Under the pieces are notes generated by a model. That model ran no database searches. It saw nothing but the letters and a program-made list of their open reading frames with translations, and was not told the DNA's origin. Shown in pieces: positions 984-54,110 of a DNA stretch of 64,000 nucleotides. The DNA is from Eledone cirrhosa. Taxonomy: Eukaryota. Made by a program: the position numbers and the translations under genes. Location: contig OZ024741.1 of assembly GCA_964016885.1 (NCBI GenBank), positions 366,048,001 to 366,112,000 on the forward strand, written 5' to 3'. The first letter of the stretch is position 1, and the number at the start of each line of letters is the position of its first letter.

Positions 984-1169
984 AAAATGTACGACCCCGA
1001 CGGCAGAGCTCAAGCCGTTTTGACGGGTATTTCCAGAAATAGCCGTCGAAACGGCTTGAGCTCTGCCATCGGGGTCATACATTTTCCTATTACCCACTCT
1101 ACTACCCTAGGTATTGAGTACTCTTGTGCGTTATGGTCCATCTGGTTCCTTACCACAACTCCTCCGTTA
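981..1169 (+). mobile_element. Family A fold-back element (putative Penelope-like remnant) between (TA)n tracts
   Basis: Inverted arms 981-1033 / 1036-1088, then an ~80-nt unique tail (tacccactctactaccctaggtattgagta...) ending in (TA)n. The same family recurs 7 more times in the window. Confidence 0.7.
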
Positions 1170-1173
1170 TATA

Positions 1174-1234
<61 letters not shown>

Positions 1235-1236
<2 letters not shown>

Positions 1237-1736
1237 TTCATTTCTCACTCTTAATACGGCACTTACTTACTATAATAATTTCGTTTCATTCTATTCCATT
1301 TATCGTTTTCGGTGTGCCCGGCCGACTGAACTCACTTGATATGCAAATTAGGCTGCTGAGCTGTTAATATGCATAAGGAAAGTATATACTTTCAGACGTT
1401 CAACTATCTGGCAGGAAGGTATACGATGCTGACGATAGCTAATAAGCTTGAAACTAGTACATCGTTCCTGTGTCAGTGTTGAACAAAAAGGTGACGTGGT
1501 TGCCTAAACACTGTACGGCGTATTCGGGCTGTTTGTTTGTTTACAAACAAACAAACCGAACATTATAATAAATGTTCGGTAAACCGATACGTGCATATAT
1601 ATATGTGTGCATGTATGTATATATATACATTCTACTGTACGTCTGTATACATATATGTATGCACGTATACATACATACTTATATTTAAGGAAGTGCCGTA
1701 CTAAGAGTGAGAAATGAAATTTCGTTTCATTCTATT

Positions 1737-1740
<4 letters not shown>
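1235..1740 (+). mobile_element. Family B hammerhead-bearing retrozyme/PLE-like element, 441-bp unit with terminal redundancy and 5' inverted piece
   Basis: aatttcgtttcattctattccat occurs at 1277 and 1718. 1235-1269 is the reverse complement of ~1686-1720. Flanked by (TA)n; homologous copy at 46466-47079. Confidence 0.75.
1423..1465 (+). ncRNA. Minimal type I hammerhead ribozyme
   Basis: acgatg-CTGACGA-t agct aata agct t-GAAAC-ta-GTA-catcgt: perfect 6-bp stem I, intact core, palindromic ACTAGT stem III. Confidence 0.85.
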
Positions 1741-1795
<55 letters not shown>

Positions 1796-8136: not shown

Positions 8137-10319
8137 TTCTAAACACTAACACATACCTTCACAACACATACACACACAGGCAGGCAGATAGACACAATAT
8201 AAAGTACATGTCATAAGATCTTTAGCTACATCTTTAAGAATGCTTTGCTATCATAAGATTTCGTAGTCGATCCAACTGGCTTATATTTTGGGCATCTGTA
8301 CTCTGACTTCGTGTCGACCTAAACCTTATAAGTAGAATTGGGTAGACGGAAACTATGTAGAAACCTATAGAATTGATTTTACCTGCAATTCAGACTTGTC
8401 ACACTGTGTTACACGGATACGGCTTGAGAATTACGTTTTGGGTACAGGTGTATGTGGAATACTCAACCATATACGCGTTAATTAACGTACTGGGCGTTCA
8501 GTTGATCGAACAACTGAAGACTCATTGTCCAAAGCGACGGAGCATCCGTATATTGAATTACTCAAATGATAGTCATAATTATTTGCAAGAAGTTGATAGT
8601 AACTATAACAAATTATTCACATGAATACGTAGTAGTAGAGGCAGCATGACTGAATGGTTTATGTTTCGCTTTATTCTCACTGCCTGACATCTTGAACAAG
8701 TGTAATTAATCATAGCCTCGGTCCGATCAAAACCTTGTCAGGGAACATGAGCGGACGGAAATTATTTGGAAGCTTCGTTGGATGAACTTTACCTACAATT
8801 CAAAGGGCCATCCTTGCCATACAGTGTGTCACGCTCAACCTCTCTGAGAGTTAGTTTAAAGGTACATGAATCTCTGAAATGGTCAGTAACTTGCACGTTA
8901 ATCTCATGAGTAGGCTGCTCCGTTGATTGAACAACTGGCATATACAGCTTTGAATCCGAATCCGAAAGAGGTCCATTTCAATAAGTACTAATCAAGTACT
9001 GGAGTCGATCGAAAAAGGCTGACTCCATATTTAAAATGTGTGGCCTTGCATCTAAGTTAGAAAGCAATCTAATATTTAGGTTTTTTCTTAAAGAAGTGGT
9101 AGCTGATGTTTCTGAGGATACTTGGCTATTTCAGCACCCTAGCCTCACTATCATCCGCGCCAATGGCGTTAATGTCTTAGCTTGACTTAGAAAGTCTTAG
9201 AGAGAAACACCAGCATTCTCTGTTTAACTGAGTGTGCATTTCTTTTGTTCATATTACTTTCCCTAAGATATTCATGAAATGGAATATATTATATATGCAT
9301 TAGAAACACACATTCGCACATGCCCCACTCCCATATAGATATCATTTTAAATAGAAATATAGATTGCTTGGAAATTGCTAAAATGGTTTTAAGCTGAATA
9401 TATTTAGTCTGCATAGATTCATCATATGTTTGTCATGTTGAACATACATTGTTACACATTCCACAGTGAATGAGATCAGTTTATTGTCTGTGGAGTTATC
9501 TTAGAAGTGCGTGGTAAAAATAGCTTAGAATAAATGTTATAAATAGTGTAACTAATTCTAAAAATAGTAGGAGAGTGTTGAAGTGACAATCTAGACAGTC
9601 TTAGCCATTCAATTTTAGTTTTCAATTTGGAAACTGTTCAGAAACAAAACTACTTAACACTTTCAGTGTGATATTTTTAATGAAAGACACAGCCTATGGT
9701 TTTCAAATCATATCGAAAATAATCAAAGATAACTAAATTTCTTATTATAAAGCTGGTGTTTCGAACACAAATGGACACATTTGCTTAGATGAAATTTTAA
9801 TGGAAGCTTTTTAGATACATATAAACACTTTAGAATCAACAGCATTATATTGTAGAACTAGATGAGCAGTCACGGGGTTTGGTATCAAAAAGATTGATAA
9901 GTTGTATTTTTCATTAAAATTAAAACCCGTGGCCAAATTTAATCATTAAGATAATGATGTTTCTTCTCACTATGTATGGAATTTTATTTAATTGAATTTA
10001 ACATTCTTTGGCTCACTATTATATTTCATAGATTCGACTTGATTACTTTTTAGGTATCTTTAAACCTGAATACATTATTATAACTCCTAATTGTCTTAAT
10101 GTAGATAAAGCAATAATCTTTTTTATATCATATTCAAAAATAGCACAAACACCAGACATAAACATAGTTATAATAGAAATAAATATAATAAATTCACAAA
10201 ACCTATTAATATATATCAAATGATTATAAAATCGAATTAATAATTTAGATAGTACAATTTGTTATATTAATGTGACATTGCGGTCGGAAGTTGACGAGTT
10301 TTGACTCATTATTATTAGA

Positions 10320-10512
10320 AGGGCGGTGGATTGGCAGTATCGGTAGAGGGTCGGACACCATGCTTTCCAGCATAGTTACGTCCCTTTACCATCTGAGTTC
10401 AAATCCCGCCGAGGTTGACTTTGCCTTTCATCCTTACGGGGTCGATAAAATAAAGTACCAGTAATGCACTGGTAATTGCTGGCCTTGTGCCTAAAGTAGA
10501 AACAATTATTAT
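10320..10512 (+). mobile_element. tRNA-derived SINE, abundant family
   Basis: A box tggcagtatcgg, B box gagttcaaatcc, conserved gcctttcatccttacggggtcgataaaataaagtaccag, (ATT)n tail. Confidence 0.85.
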
Positions 10513-10800
10513 TAGATCCTGAGCTCCATCAGATTCCGAGGCATTTTAGGCAAATGTAATTTACCATGGCCTCATGTTGACCTATACAATATGAGTGAAA
10601 CTGAGCAGACGGAAACTGTTTGGAACTCATTTGGATAGATTGTACCTGAAATTACATGATGACATAGATTGTCCCACTGAATCTCAGTGAAAACTACTTT
10701 CAAAATATACATATTTAAAAAATACTCTCCCACTGAAACCGTAATTTCATGAAAAACCCGTTTTTTTATCATACAACTGGAATACTCATCGACTAAACCG

Positions 10801-13339: not shown

Positions 13340-13732
13340 AGGGCGATGGATTGGCAGTATCGGTAGAGAGTCGGACGCCATGCTTTGACGCATAGAGTTA
13401 CGGCCCTTGCCATTCTGAGTTCAAATCCCGCCGAGGTTAACTTTGCCTTTCATCCTTACGGGGTCGATAAAATAAAGTACCAGTAATGCACTGGAGTAAT
13501 TGATGGCCTTGTGCCAAAAGTAGAAACAATTATATAGTGCATTGGCGGTGGATTGGCAGTATCGGTAGAGGGTCGGATGCTATGCTTTGACGCATAGAGT
13601 TACGGCCCTTGCCATTCTGAGTTCAAATACCGCCGAGGTTAACTTTACCTTTCATCCTTACGGGGTCGATAAAATAAAGTACCAGTAATGCACTGGGTAA
13701 TTGCTGGCCTTGTGCCAAAAGTAGAAACAATT
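13340..13732 (+). mobile_element. Head-to-tail SINE dimer
   Basis: Near-identical copies at 13340-13532 and 13544-13732, bounded by ttatatagtgcatt present three times. Confidence 0.85.
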
Positions 13733-14230
13733 ATATAGTGCATTGAGGAGATTATTTATAGGATTTACATAATAGTAAAGGCTATAACAAGACTATAACA
13801 AGTGTTATTGTATTTAGCTGGTTCTGTAAGAAATCTAGTTCGTATTATTTAACGGATAATACACTTTATATAATTCTTGTAAAGTAAAACAAAGCTCTTG
13901 AGTTTTATTAGATGGTTCTTGGAGAAAACTAGCCTAGCTCATATTATTTGTCGGACATCATATTTGCTTTGATAAATAAGCAAATTCTCCTTTCATTAAT
14001 GACGCTTGAGTTAGTGAATAAATGTCAAGGATAGAGGTGGGTTTATTTGACATTCATTCCATGGAGGTGTTGTGGTACACACACCTATCACTATAAATAC
14101 AGAAAGATACGCAATAGCCAAGAGAATTTGTAAAGAGAGTAGGAGAGAAAGGAAAGAGACAGTGAGGGAGTTAGACAGATAGTGAGTGTGCAGGGGTTTG
14201 AGGAAAAATAGAAAGATAGATAGGTAGATA

Positions 14231-15323: not shown

Positions 15324-15390
15324 TTTTATTATGCGCATTTCAAAAACAAACATCATCAAGCAATAATATTTGTGTTTTCATCAGATAAAA
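15324..15390 (-). ncRNA. Minimal type I hammerhead ribozyme
   Basis: Minus strand: ttttat-CTGATGA-(long GU-rich stem II)-GAAA-tgcgca-TA-ataaaa, with palindromic ATGCGCAT stem III. Lies in an island between (TA)n tracts. Confidence 0.8.
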
Positions 15391-15498
15391 CAGGAGAACA
15401 TGATATGAAGGCTAAAAAACACTTGTGGATAGTGCAGTTTTAAATCAACATATCCGATATCTGCATTGCTTTATTGTACTACAATAAAACTCACCTCC

Positions 15499-15620: not shown

Positions 15621-15623
<3 letters not shown>

Positions 15624-16597
15624 CGAAGGAAATGTAGTAAGGAACCAGGTGGACCATAAAGCACCAAAGTACTCAATACTTAGGGTAGTAGAGTGGGTAA
15701 TAGGAACGAGTAGGACCCCGACGGCTGATCTCAAGCCGTTTCGACGGCTATTTTTGGACTAAATTAAATTTTTTATCCTGGTATATGAATAGCCGAGCTT
15801 CTCAGGGAGTAATTCCATATATGGTAAAAGTGATTGTCACAAGGATTGGTCAAAAGTTTGTTGTTGAGACATAATTCTATCATGGCAATTTGTGAAAGGA
15901 AGCGGTAGCTGAACCTGCCAGAGAAGAACGAGGGAGTGGGAGTGGAGGAAACCCAGTCGTGCGTTGATAGTGCCAACTACAGCAAGGCAGGAGGTCAAGC
16001 AAGTATACTAGGCAGGGGGAGGGGGGGAAGTCGAAACAATAAGTAAATCAATATGGAGTAAATATATAGAAGAATACCAAGAATGTTAAAAATATTTAAA
16101 AAAAACAATTTCTGGTTACTATTCCCTAACCACAGTCATCAAGTCTCTCACTGGTACTGCTAAACTATAGAAAAGTTTACTAGGTGGGACGGAATTGTAG
16201 TGAGACCATTTTAAGAGTTAGTAGTAATCAAACGATTATATCTTACGGTGACAGGTCAACAAGTGGGGGGGGGGTCAAACTACTAAAGATACTACCACGA
16301 AATAATAATTCAGAGTCCCGAAACTAACACGAAATAATTGTTTCTACCCTAGGCACAAAGCCAACAACCACCCAGTGCAAAAAATAAACTAATACGAAAT
16401 AATAATTCAGAATCCCGAAAATGAATACTAATACTATCTCTAAGGGTGCCGCTACGATACAAAAATTCTAGTGCAAACTACATAAATGCTCGTACGAAGT
16501 ATATGAAGAATTTGATACGGAAAATTAATTCAGAATCATTTAGTCCAGAATTAGCCGTCGAAACAGCTTGAGCTCAGCCGTCGGGGTCCTACTCGTT

Positions 16598-17802: not shown

Positions 17803-17998
17803 GGAACAAGTAGGACCCCGACGGCTGAGCTCAAGCCGTTTCGACGGCTAATTCTGGATTCCAGAATTAGCCGTCGAAACGGCTTGAGCTCAGCCGTCGG
17901 GGTCCTACTTGTTCCTATTACCCACTCTACTACCCTAAGTATTGAGTACTTTGGTGCGTTATGGTCCATCTGGTTCCTTACCACATTTCCTTCGTTAT
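17803..17998 (+). mobile_element. Family A fold-back element, perfect 56-bp arms
   Basis: 17803-17858 / 17860-17915 form a perfect inverted repeat with a 1-nt centre, then the family A tail into (TA)n. Confidence 0.75.
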
Positions 17999-29050: not shown

Positions 29051-29389
29051 TTAGAATATAAATATTAATAAAATAGATGTTCTTTTGATCAATTACATTT
29101 TATTATACATATCTCGGATGTACAACAGTACGTCCTCATCAGACAAAATATAATTATATATGACATACCCTGAGATGTTAAATATATATATTATATGTTG
29201 TCTGATGAGGACGTACTGTTGTACATCCGAAATATGTATAATAAAATGTAATTGATCAAAAGAACATATATTTTATTAATATTTATATTCTAATATTAAT
29301 AACTCCGGAAAATTATTTTACCGTAGAGTGCTTCCAATCTACTGTAAAACTCATTCTTTGATATACTCATTGAATTTTGTTTAACTCTT

Positions 29390-31829: not shown

Positions 31830-32206
<377 letters not shown>

Positions 32207-35077: not shown

Positions 35078-35079
<2 letters not shown>

Positions 35080-35262
35080 CGAAGGAAATGTGGTAAGGAA
35101 CCAGGTGGACCATAACGCACCAAAGTACTCAATACTTGGGGTAGTAGAGTGGGTAATAGGAACCAGTAAGACCCCGACGGCTGAGCTCAAGCCGTTTCGA
35201 CAGCTAATTCTGGACTTAGCTGTCGAAACGGCTTGAGCTCAGCCCACGGGGTCTTACTGGTT

Positions 35263-35265
<3 letters not shown>
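35078..35265 (-). mobile_element. Family A fold-back element
   Basis: Family A tail plus inverted arms centred near 35210; (TA)n on both sides. Confidence 0.75.
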
Positions 35266-36434: not shown

Positions 36435-36888
<454 letters not shown>

Positions 36889-44121: not shown

Positions 44122-44624
44122 AGTAAGAATATTTTCGAAACAGCGAGTGGGTTTGAAATTATTAGAAATGTAAGCTATCGCCGTATTATGACTAAAGAAA
44201 TTAAAGAAATTATTTAGTCTGATAGTGGGGTTAAGAACCTTCGGAGAAATGGAAAAAGATGAGTATTGACGTACATGGGAGTCGAACCCACATCTTTGGT
44301 TATCCGGACCACTGTGCTACCATAATACGGCGATAGCTTACATTTCTAATAATTTCAAACCGACTCGCTGTTTCGAAAATATCCTTACTTGACATTACAG
44401 TCGCTAAGTTTATAGCTTCTAATTTGAATGGAAAGAGACGGGTGATGTGTTGGTGTAAATGGTAGCACAGTGGTCCGGATAACCAAAGATGTGGGTCCAA
44501 CTCCCATGTACGTCAATACTCATCTTTTTCCATTTCTCCGAGGGTTCTTAACCCCACTATCAGGCTAAAAAATTTCTTTAATTTCTTTCGTCAAAATACG
44601 GCGATAGCTTACATTTCTAATAAT
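44119..44624 (+). mobile_element. tRNA-containing fold-back element, 271-bp unit with terminal redundancy
   Basis: aatacggcgatagcttacatttctaataat occurs at 44324 and 44595. 44119-44323 is an inverted copy spanning the unit junction. (TA)n on both sides. Confidence 0.75.
44444..44515 (+). pseudogene. tRNA-like cloverleaf embedded in a repeat (not a canonical tRNA)
   Basis: 72 nt. Acceptor gatgtgt/gtacgtc, D arm gtgt-aaatggta-gcac, tggt-ccggata-acca, T arm gtggg/cccat (GTTCGAC loop in the mirror copy), TTTTT 10 nt downstream. Confidence 0.7.
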
Positions 44625-46330: not shown

Positions 46331-46465
46331 TTCACCATAAATATTAGCATTGATAAAATAGAAACGAGTAAAGGGGCTAGCAGTATTTTACTCAATTTTC
46401 TAAACAGTTTATAGCGATCAACTATTTGTGTTTGGATTCCCCCATTTTGAAATATATATATATAT

Positions 46466-47075
46466 AAATATAAGTATGTATACGTACATATATATGTATA
46501 CAGACGTACAGTATGCATATACATATATGCACACACATATATATATATGTACGTATGGGTTTACCGAACATTTATTATAATGCTCAGTTTGTTTGTGAAC
46601 AAACAGCCCGAATTATTAGCCGTAGTGTTCGGCAACCATCGTTGCCATTTTGTTCAACACTGACAAAGAAACAATGAACTAGTTTCTAGCTTATTAGCTG
46701 TCATCAGCACCGTATACCTTCCTATTAGTTGATTGAACGTTTGAAAGTATATACTTTCCTTATGCATATTAACGCCTGAGCAGCCTAATTCGCATATCGA
46801 GTGAGTTAGTGGGCCGGGCGTACCGAAAACGATACATGAAAAAAATGAAATTTCATTTCTCACTCTTAGTACGGCTGATACTTAAATATAAGTATGTATA
46901 CGTACATACATATATGTAAACTCAAACGTACATATATATATATATATATATATGTGCATGTATGTATGTATATACACACTACTGTACGTCTGTATACATA
47001 TATCTATGTACGTTTACATACTTATATTTAAGTATCAGCCGTACGAAGAGTGAGAAATGAAATTTCATTTTTTCC

Positions 47076-47079
<4 letters not shown>
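46466..47079 (-). mobile_element. Family B element, second copy (418-bp period, different end points, inverted arm ~46955-47079)
   Basis: aaatataagtatgtatacgtacata occurs at 46466 and 46884; homologous to 1235-1740. Confidence 0.75.
46671..46713 (-). ncRNA. Minimal type I hammerhead ribozyme
   Basis: Minus strand: acggtg-CTGATGA-c agct aata agct a-GAAAC-ta-GTT-cattgt. Stem I changes relative to the 1423 copy retain G-U pairing. Confidence 0.8.
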
Positions 47080-47121
<42 letters not shown>

Positions 47122-47416: not shown

Positions 47417-47981
47417 TTCTTCTTCTTCTTCTTCTTCTTCTTCTTCTTCTTCTTCTTCTTCTCCTTCTCCTTCTTCTTCTTCTTCTTCTTCTCCTTCTTC
47501 TTCTTCTTCTTCTTCTTCTTCTTCTTCTTCTTCTTCTTCTCCTTCTTCTTCTCCTTCTTCTTCTTCTTCTTCTTCTTCTTCTTCTCCTTCTTCTTCTTCT
47601 TCTTCTTCTCCTTCTTCTTCTTCTTCTTCTTCTTCTTCTTCTTCTTCTTCTTCTTCTTCTCCTTCTTCTTCTCCTTCTTCTTCTTCTTCTTCTTCTCCTT
47701 CTTCTTCTTCTTCTTCTTCTTCTCCTTCTTCTTCTTCTTCTTCTTCTTCTTCTTCTCCTTCTTCTTCTTCTTCTTCTTCTTCTTCTCCTTCTTCTTCTTC
47801 TTCTTCTTCTTCTCCTTCTCCTTCTCCTTCTTCTTCTTCTTCTTCTCCTTCTTCTTCTTCTTCTTCTTCTTCTCCTTCTTCTTCTTCTTCTCCTTCTTCT
47901 TCTTCTTCTTCTTCTTCTTCTCCTTCTTCTTCTTCTTCTTCTTCTTCTTCTTCTCCTTCTTCTTCTTCTTCTTCTTCTTCT
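47417..47981. repeat. (TTC)n/(GAA)n tract with GGA interruptions, ~565 bp
   Basis: Direct reading; abuts the 3' end of the RTE fragment. Confidence 0.95.
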
Positions 47982-51639: not shown

Positions 51640-52161
51640 ACCAACACTCACACGAGAACCAACACTCACACGAGAACCAACACTCACACGAGAACCAACA
51701 CTCACACGAGAACCAACACTCACACGAGAACCAACACTCACACGAGAACCAACACGCACACGAGAACCAACACTCACACGAGAACCAACACGCACACGAG
51801 AACCAACACTCACACGAGAACCAACACTCACACGAGAACCAACACTCACACGAGAACCAACACGCACACGAGAACCAACACGCACACGAGAACCAACACG
51901 CACACGAGAACCAACACGCACACGAGAACCAACACGCACACGAGAACCAACACTCACACGAGAACCAACACGCACACGAGAACCAACACTCACACGAGAA
52001 CCAACACGCACACGAGAACCAACACGCACACGAGAACCAACACTCACACGAGAACCAACACGCACACGAGAACCAACACGCACACGAGAACCAACACTCA
52101 CACGAGAACCAACACTCACACGAGAACCAACACTCACACGAGAACCAACACGCACACGAGA
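51640..52161. repeat. 18-bp minisatellite accaacac(t/g)cacacgaga x29
   Basis: 522 bp = 29 units; only one position varies. Confidence 0.95.
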
Positions 52162-54110
52162 ACCAACACCAACAAACACACCAACACCAACACACATACC
52201 ATCACTAACACACACACCAACACCAACACACATACCATCACCAACACACACACCAACATCAACAAACACACCAACACCAACAAACACACCATCACTAACA
52301 CACATACCATCACTAACACACATACCATCACCAACAAACACACCAACACCAACACACACACCATCACTAACACACACACCATCACCAACACACACACCAA
52401 CACCAACAAACACACCAACACCAACAAACACACCAACACCAACACACACACCATCACTAACACACATACCATCACCAACACACACACCAACACCAACACA
52501 CATACCAACACCAACACACACACCAACACCAACACACACACCAACACCAACAAACACACCAACACCAACAAACACACCAACACCAACACACATACCATCA
52601 CCAACACACATACCAACACCAACAAACACACCAACACCAACAAACACACCAACACCAACACACACACCATCACTAACACACATACCATCACTAACACACA
52701 CACCAACACCAACACACATACCATCACCAACACACACACCAACACCAACACACATACCATCACCAACACACACACCAACACCAACAAACACCAACACCAA
52801 CACACACACCATCACTAACACAAACCATCACTAACACACATACCAACACACATACCATCACCAACACACACACCAACACCAACACACACACCATCACTAA
52901 CACAAACCATCACTAACACACACACCAACAGACATACCATCACCAACACACACACCAACACCAACACACACAACACCAACACACACACCATCACTAACAC
53001 ACATACCATCACTAACACACATACCATCACTAACACACTCCATCATTAACACACACACCAGCACCAAAACACACGTCGTCAATAACACACACCAACACGC
53101 ACAGCATCACTAACACACATCAACTCCTACACACATACATATACCATCACACTCACGCACACACACCAGTTCCTACATACATACATAGATACATACACCA
53201 ACACACACACACACAGACACCAACTGCTACACACATACATACACCATCACACACCGACTCCTCCACACATACATACACCAACACATACACACACAGACAC
53301 ACACCAACTCTTACACACATACAAACACCAACGCCAACACACACACACACCAACTCCTACACATACATACGCCAACGAACACACACCATTACCAACTCCT
53401 ACACACATACTTACACCATCACACACACACACACCAACCTTCATACACACACATACACCAACACACACACCAACCACCAACACCAACTCTGACGCCATCC
53501 TCATTAATATCGACATCCTCATCACAAATACCAACACCAACACACACACATAACAATACCAACACCTACACACACATACCAATACCAATACCTACACCTA
53601 CACATACATACCAGCACCAACACCTACACATACATACCAACACCAACACATACACACATACATACCAACACCAACACCTACACATACATACCAACACCAA
53701 CACCTACACACACACATACCAACACCTACACATACATACCAACACCAACACCTACACACACACATACCAACACCTACACATACATACCAACGCCAACACA
53801 CACACGTACATACTAACACCAACACCAACACACACACACATACATACCAACGCCAACATACATCAACACTTACACACCTACAAATCCCAGTACACACACT
53901 CACATCAAACAACATCACCAACACCTTCATTTACAAACACAGAAACAGCAACTCCTATACACACACACACACCACTACCTACGCCAACACCAACACACGC
54001 ACACCAACACCTACACACATACATACACCAACATACACACACACACACACCATCACCTACACACATACATACACTAACACACACACCATCACCCACACAC
54101 ACACACTAAA
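52162..54110. repeat. Degenerate CA-rich tandem array (18-bp period decaying to low complexity)
   Basis: accaacaccaacacacac / accatcactaacacacat units with increasing divergence rightwards. Confidence 0.85.

Follow-up and report, generated by a model that had tools for sequence, protein, structure and literature searches.

The 64-kb stretch of the Eledone cirrhosa genome analysed here (64,000 nt of contig OZ024741.1; hereafter the window) contains two copies of a short repeat that begin and end at different points of the unit, and this raises the question of whether they were reverse-transcribed from a circular or multimeric RNA at different start points, as the original prediction held for these two circularly permuted copies, or whether their ends follow a stricter rule. 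In what follows, position 1 of the unit is window position 1277, 3' is used in the ribozyme sense, and two intervals of the unit are called site I (395-415) and site II (5-30). The features concerned are:

1168..1233, no strand: (TA)n target run to the left of copy 1
1235..1269, minus strand: short piece of the tail region in inverted orientation, 94% identical to 1686-1720
1277..1740, plus strand: main arm of copy 1, a 441-nt unit (1277-1717) followed by 23 nt of another; its 3' end is site II
1413..1469, plus strand: predicted type I hammerhead of copy 1, with CUGACGA core at 1429-1435, GAAA at 1450-1453 and predicted cut after 1459
1587..1668, plus strand: AU-rich long hairpin with an internal (TA)n of variable length, the chief cause of variation in unit length (420-538 nt)
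1688..1740, plus strand: 'tail', bounded on one side by site I (~1687, at ~408-411 of the unit) and on the other by site II (at ~23-27 of the unit that follows)
1739..1792, no strand: (TA)n target run to the right of copy 1
46465..46937, minus strand: main arm of copy 2 (L093), of another subfamily, slightly more than one unit long; its 3' end is site I, without the tail
46667..46723, minus strand: predicted hammerhead of copy 2, with CUGAUGA core, GUU cut triplet and predicted cut after 46677 (minus)
46938..47081, plus strand: inverted arm of copy 2 (L093), 144 bp; its 3' end is site II, with the tail
47079..47118, no strand: (TA)n target run adjoining copy 2

The two copies are 83% identical across 410 columns. 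As predicted, copy 1 carries an exact 23-bp repeat at its ends (1277-1299 and 1718-1740, period 441), and copy 2 directly repeats a different segment (period ~418, 85% identity) and has the end region of copy 1 in its interior. The view that they are circular permutations of one monomer is borne out insofar as their registers differ; it missed the inverted arm with which both copies begin, and the ~140-bp inverted arm of copy 2 (46938-47081) falls outside the permutation. Main and inverted arms of copy 2 form a head-to-head pair with one end at each site, which is typical of the family, and the outer end of the inverted piece of copy 1 (1235-1269) lies at neither fixed site, copy 1 being atypical on that side.

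One hammerhead-like motif per unit was likewise expected, and a strict descriptor finds exactly the two listed motifs in the window, compared with none in 40 Markov windows and none in 3000 draws of monomer composition; Rfam reports no hammerhead family over the window copies, either at gathering score or at E<=10, and none of its microRNA-like matches to the AU hairpin reaches gathering score. In copy 1, stem I comprises 6+5 bp with a 6-nt bulge, stem II has 4 bp with U-U at its base, and helix III is a 2-bp palindrome (ACUAGU); in copy 2, one stem I mismatch has turned into a wobble. By analogy with hammerheads treated in part of PMC4209133, this short palindromic helix III suggests that cutting may depend on dimers. 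The core is intact in 72 of 84 motifs, taken from loci picked by overall similarity, and 92% of the cells in the ribozyme helices pair, as against 29-44% in slid controls, with most rows selected by the motif itself. Covariation amounts to one compensating stem I pair among related sequences. Taken by itself, the motif is no more stably folded than its shuffles (z -0.84 and +0.78). The predicted lack of an ORF also stands: five monomers, circularised, share no conserved reading frame, the longest ATG-started frame being 43-68 aa in four of them and 112 aa, antisense, in the fifth, and a frame with RT plus GIY-YIG is absent from the unit.

The family is abundant. Exact patterns match 25,363 times for the ribozyme, 27,988 times just downstream of it and 22,644 times for the tail in the 3.0-Gb genome, and the reversed-pattern controls match nowhere. 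Complete units, taken from arrays, measure 420-538 nt at a GC content of only 36-38% and fall into several subfamilies about 8-13% apart. Most copies are dispersed insertions of one to two units with variable 5' truncation, and same-strand runs of 2-7 consecutive hammerheads occur in 22 of 146 cases, some loci spanning only 3 kb. Contigs of two sequencing runs of unrecorded kind contain the family and its head-to-tail joint, which is uninformative on expression.

The ends of 170 loci were mapped, of which 29 were obtained by similarity to each of the two window copies (29+29) and 112 in chromosome order. The window's own copies, 14 overlapping loci and two locally duplicated insertions in L154 were left out of the counts, as were insertions of less than 100 bp and those lying within 30 bp of the edge of a locus. 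Among the remaining 299 arms in 197 insertions, the 3' end lies at site I in 113, at site II in 120 and elsewhere in 66; the two sites, ~57 nt apart, thus hold 233 of 299 ends (78%), where 11% (47/441) would be expected. The concentration recurs in the position-ordered loci (150/194) and in loci fetched after the sites had been defined (72/95). More than half of the insertions (102/197) are head-to-head inverted pairs, and their ends follow a near-strict rule: 58 pairs have one end at site I and one at site II, one has both at the same site and 43 include an unclassed end, which makes 58 of 59 classed pairs one of each. Of 163 classed ends, 150 have a (TA)4 no more than 45 nt away, and most ends are inside (TA)n, where target-site duplications would be masked.

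The 5' ends, by contrast with these fixed 3' ends, scatter round the whole unit. Their fullest 11-nt window holds 16 of 194, and they are slightly off uniform (P=0.0095), with an excess at a palindromic hairpin. Near the predicted cut site there are 8 of 299 (7.5 expected), and no run-off was found at that site, either in the mapped loci or in 10 further ones selected with a pattern that lies downstream of it.

Whether copies lack shared fixed ends had been set beforehand as the test of the predicted free starts, and they do share two 3' sites. Since reverse transcription would begin at the 3' end of an arm, the start points are not free. Copy 1 ends at site II and the main arm of copy 2 at site I, and the apparent permutation is the product of two start sites and variable 5' truncation. 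The different registers in the window and the scattered 5' ends do agree with copying that starts at free points on a circle; this would require an antisense template, on which the scattered ends would be the starts, and it leaves 78% of the 3' ends in 11% of the unit to be accounted for. Passages of PMC3846280 raise an antisense template, and those of PMC11167929 map the starts to the borders of the tail. We regard free starts as very improbable. Fixed 3' ends together with one-of-each pairs mean that the copies are not free permutations and that they carry the 'tail' signature of Penelope-like elements (PLEs).

That signature is known from earlier work. An optional tail at one inverted pLTR is described in the portions of PMC3846280 and PMC8557442 at hand, and in vitro data excerpted from PMC11167929 place two internal RT start sites at the bounds of the tail, with both strands extended and uncut RNA used as template. 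A coding PLE of the same genome served as a control. Of 10,596 GIY-YIG candidates, 42 loci were examined, and one of them (L043) holds PLE-N1, a 938-aa frame with RVT_1 and GIY-YIG whose CxxxxCxxC linker is of the Neptune/Nematis type set out in a section of PMC8557442. Its tail has 8,302 exact matches in the genome. In loci chosen for having the tail, 46 of 51 PLE-N1 3' ends lie at two sites 64 nt apart, in (TA)n, and the pairs comprise 15 with and without tail, none with both ends at the same site and 4 unclassed. This anatomy matches the published PLE insertions (PMC3846280 and PMC8557442, as excerpted) and the in vitro start sites (PMC11167929, likewise). The 5' ends of PLE-N1 differ from those of the family in that 23 of 51 cluster within a single window of 11 nt; we infer run-off at a fixed RNA 5' end. 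Two further observations concern PLE-N1. Its terminal repeat (L043:2777-4306, minus) carries a hammerhead with U for C3 and A for G8, a variant also present in a passage of PMC4209133, and many of its copies are ~215/150-nt inverted stumps with a common 5' end.

Our preferred reading, to which we assign a probability of roughly 80%, is that the family is a non-autonomous element copied by a PLE RT/GIY-YIG protein from circular or uncut multimeric RNA. In such a process tandem arrays would be transcribed, and the PLE protein would cleave a (TA)n run on both strands. The bound RNA would be primed at site I by one of the DNA ends and at site II by the other; synthesis of each arm would go on for a variable distance, often exceeding one unit and reading through the ribozyme site. 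Head-to-head joining of the 5' ends of the two cDNAs would follow, unless one arm were lost. Paired arms are nearer to each other than the median copy in 30 of 30 cases, but nearest in only 9 of 30, and share 10 rare variants as against 112 unshared ones; by this weak test, an origin of both arms of a pair from one RNA molecule is at most possible. Head-to-tail run-on, with up to seven hammerheads, and the lack of a fixed 5' end fit a circular or uncut multimeric template, and to that extent the predicted retrozyme-like copying from such an RNA survives (22/146 runs, scattered 5' ends), though with its free starts removed.

Every end feature described so far is pLTR-like, and one might ask whether the copies are the truncated pseudo-LTRs of an autonomous PLE missed among the candidates, given that 42 loci of 10,596 were examined. 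We consider this very improbable. The 51 5' flanks of this sample that are not TA share no upstream extension, consistent with the prediction that the copies are not merely pLTRs of a longer element, and long arms run into the previous unit rather than into coding sequence. The 5' flanks of 95 single arms give PLE protein matches at only two loci, both to unrelated PLEs, and copies are found in just 2 of 42 PLE loci, each outside that PLE's own terminal repeat. No terminal-repeat homology was detected in the 42 GIY-YIG loci. Nor did the sequence show a significant likeness to any of six PLE 3' ends (even the best score was matched by 20 of 200 shuffles), and we therefore name no parent or partner. 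Several candidates were rejected: a pyrimidine-rich likeness between site II and the PLE-N1 end was not significant, a match of L232 to PLE ends is a simple repeat, and L053 and L054, where copies lie near PLE frames, involve PLEs with terminal repeats of their own.

Four of the 197 insertions are fused directly, with no TA spacer, to PLE 3' fragments of three PLE families: L020 and L139 to PLE-N1, L134 to the L049 family and L147 to another, head to head in L134, L139 and L147 and in tandem in L020. These fusions suggest co-insertion by one enzyme; neighbouring insertions could also have been joined by later deletion. Two TA-spaced neighbours were also seen in the end map.

One could instead suppose a satellite or a foldback element that multiplied by duplication at the DNA level and whose hammerhead is incidental; the inverted ends are like those of foldback elements, and local duplications do occur (L150, with an 842-bp repeat, L154 and L147). 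Such an element would hardly yield mostly dispersed single units with variable 5' truncation, or inverted arms that may be of any length and yet are asymmetric by exactly the tail, and the descriptor matches far beyond chance. The one-of-each end rule, common to the family and an RT-coding element, largely refutes this explanation, and we give it almost no credence. The array at L150:3843-5773 is an exact 842-bp higher-order repeat; we rejected its A-B-A-B order as the trace of a rolled dimer circle because, by eye, unit 1 is unlike units 3 and 5, and read it as a later 842-bp duplication or an assembly effect.

The nature of the RNA template can be viewed in two ways. On the one hand, it may be a monomer circle, closed by host ligation after the hammerhead has cut (as a dimer, through its palindromic helix III); we see about even odds for this. 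The absence of a fixed 5' end and of a stop at the cut site, the conserved core and fold, and the private variants in three arrays favour a circle; that uncut multimers explain most of these features weakens the case. Folded as circles, five monomers reach -128 to -152 kcal/mol (z -7 to -11, 30 doublet-block shuffles each), a stability helped by the AU hairpin. A consensus of 14 monomers has 137 pairs, of which 9 have changed on both sides and 31 on one, among related sequences, and 74 of 1918 cells are broken. Going further, a hammerhead circRNA might itself be the direct PLE template, on which two-site priming and rolling would give permuted, inverted and longer-than-unit copies of its own sequence, not of a borrowed pLTR, co-insertable with several PLE families; this we advance tentatively, at somewhat less than an even chance. 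If true, it would be genomic proof, with the start sites mapped, of the circRNA-to-DNA step proposed for animal retrozymes.

On the other hand, PLE-driven copying might use only linear read-through transcripts of tandem arrays, with a hammerhead that seldom cuts and no circle, which is quite possible if short of probable. Tandem arrays exist as possible sources, PLE-N1 arms continue through the cut site predicted for PLE-N1 itself and rarely stop there, and in the family's own motif the base of stem II (U-U) is weak and helix III has just 2 bp. Hammerhead mutants had no effect on insertion in vitro according to the part of PMC11167929 at hand, and 8 of 9 Xenopus dimers were without cleavage in an excerpt of 10.64898/2026.07.22.740005. 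Such transcripts should have a fixed 5' end, as an internal promoter would give and as PLE-N1 appears to have, and should carry along a shared upstream flank, which 51 flanks do not show. They also leave unexplained why core and whole-unit fold are kept across subfamilies about 8-13% apart. Private variants are fixed in every unit of three arrays (L127, L129 and L161), as if each came from one rolled molecule; later duplication would give the same pattern.

The metazoan non-LTR retrozymes of coral, mussel and axolotl (PMC7229834, excerpted, also for what follows) likewise are short, low-GC, non-coding tandem units with one type I hammerhead and a self-paired predicted circle, in genomes that also hold PLEs, and axolotl HHR_Amex2 shares the U-U at the base of helix II and the 2-bp helix III. 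Their units measure 150-450 bp, so that the Eledone unit is at or above that range. The Eledone family differs in consisting mostly of dispersed insertions of one to two units, and in its two fixed ends, inverted arms and (TA)n targets, which are undescribed for those retrozymes in the available main text, where the word 'inverted' does not occur. Cleavage and circles were demonstrated for them and are predictions for the Eledone family. Mobilisation of retrozymes by PLEs has already been proposed (parts of PMC7229834 and the bioRxiv preprint 10.64898/2026.07.22.740005); the excerpted preprint describes a mixture of monomers, dimers and multimers, as here, and builds on co-occurrence and vertebrate pLTR homology, in contrast to the insertion signature and fusions presented here, with no detected pLTR homology.

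With endonuclease-bearing PLEs (portions of PMC3846280, PMC8557442, PMC11167929 and PMC4209133) the family shares the head-to-head inverted, 5'-truncated arm, the one-ended tail, the microsatellite bias, the palindromic helix III and the partial tandems. It differs from them in that the unit has no RT/endonuclease frame, closes on itself and lacks a fixed 5' end, and its tail of ~57 nt exceeds the 30-40 bp reported there, that of PLE-N1 being 64 nt. The same excerpts describe non-autonomous head-to-tail PLEs from Chlamys (MRC1), of a group mostly without canonical hammerheads. At the level of sequence features, the family combines those of non-LTR retrozymes with PLE-type insertions and is not an autonomous PLE; we regard it as a putative new and abundant non-LTR retrozyme, or non-autonomous PLE, of an element class that is itself known. 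In the open-access literature we found no report of this family, of cephalopod retrozymes or of end-mapping evidence for PLE-moved retrozymes, and the word 'ribozyme' is absent from the accessible part of an Octopus vulgaris repeat paper.

The earlier grounds for seeing PLEs as movers of animal retrozymes were co-occurrence and homology, to which this family adds mechanistic footprints: mapped start sites, a near-strict one-of-each end rule and fusions to PLE ends. With young copies in the tens of thousands and PLE frames that look intact in a single genome, two questions become testable: whether the template is a circular RNA, and by what route PLEs acquire their inverted ends.

The window contains further repeats. 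An abundant TA-flanked element with the look of a PLE-type stump (982-1167, 15623-15758, 17803-17995, 31882-31982, 35079-35264 and 36642-36763) is palindromic at its centre and has two unlike arms, one short and inverted, the other longer and with an extra ~75-nt end; it has matches in 58 of 272 loci, and in L137 it directly abuts a 5' end of the family. A looser descriptor yields three more hammerhead-like motifs, at ~15330-15400 (minus), ~29200-29250 (plus) and ~24400 (minus), the first in a repeat that ends in (TA)n and occurs in 18 of the 272 loci and the second within an inverted repeat found in 9 of them. A high-copy dispersed repeat of ~200 bp and SINE-like appearance is present at 10308-10514 and about 15 other places, including a tandem pair at 13342-13745, and a tRNA-like Rfam match (44444-44515, 38 bits) adjoining a TA run is possibly the head of a SINE. 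A long AC-rich 18/36-bp minisatellite and a TTC-rich array occupy 51640-54110 and 47417-47981, respectively.
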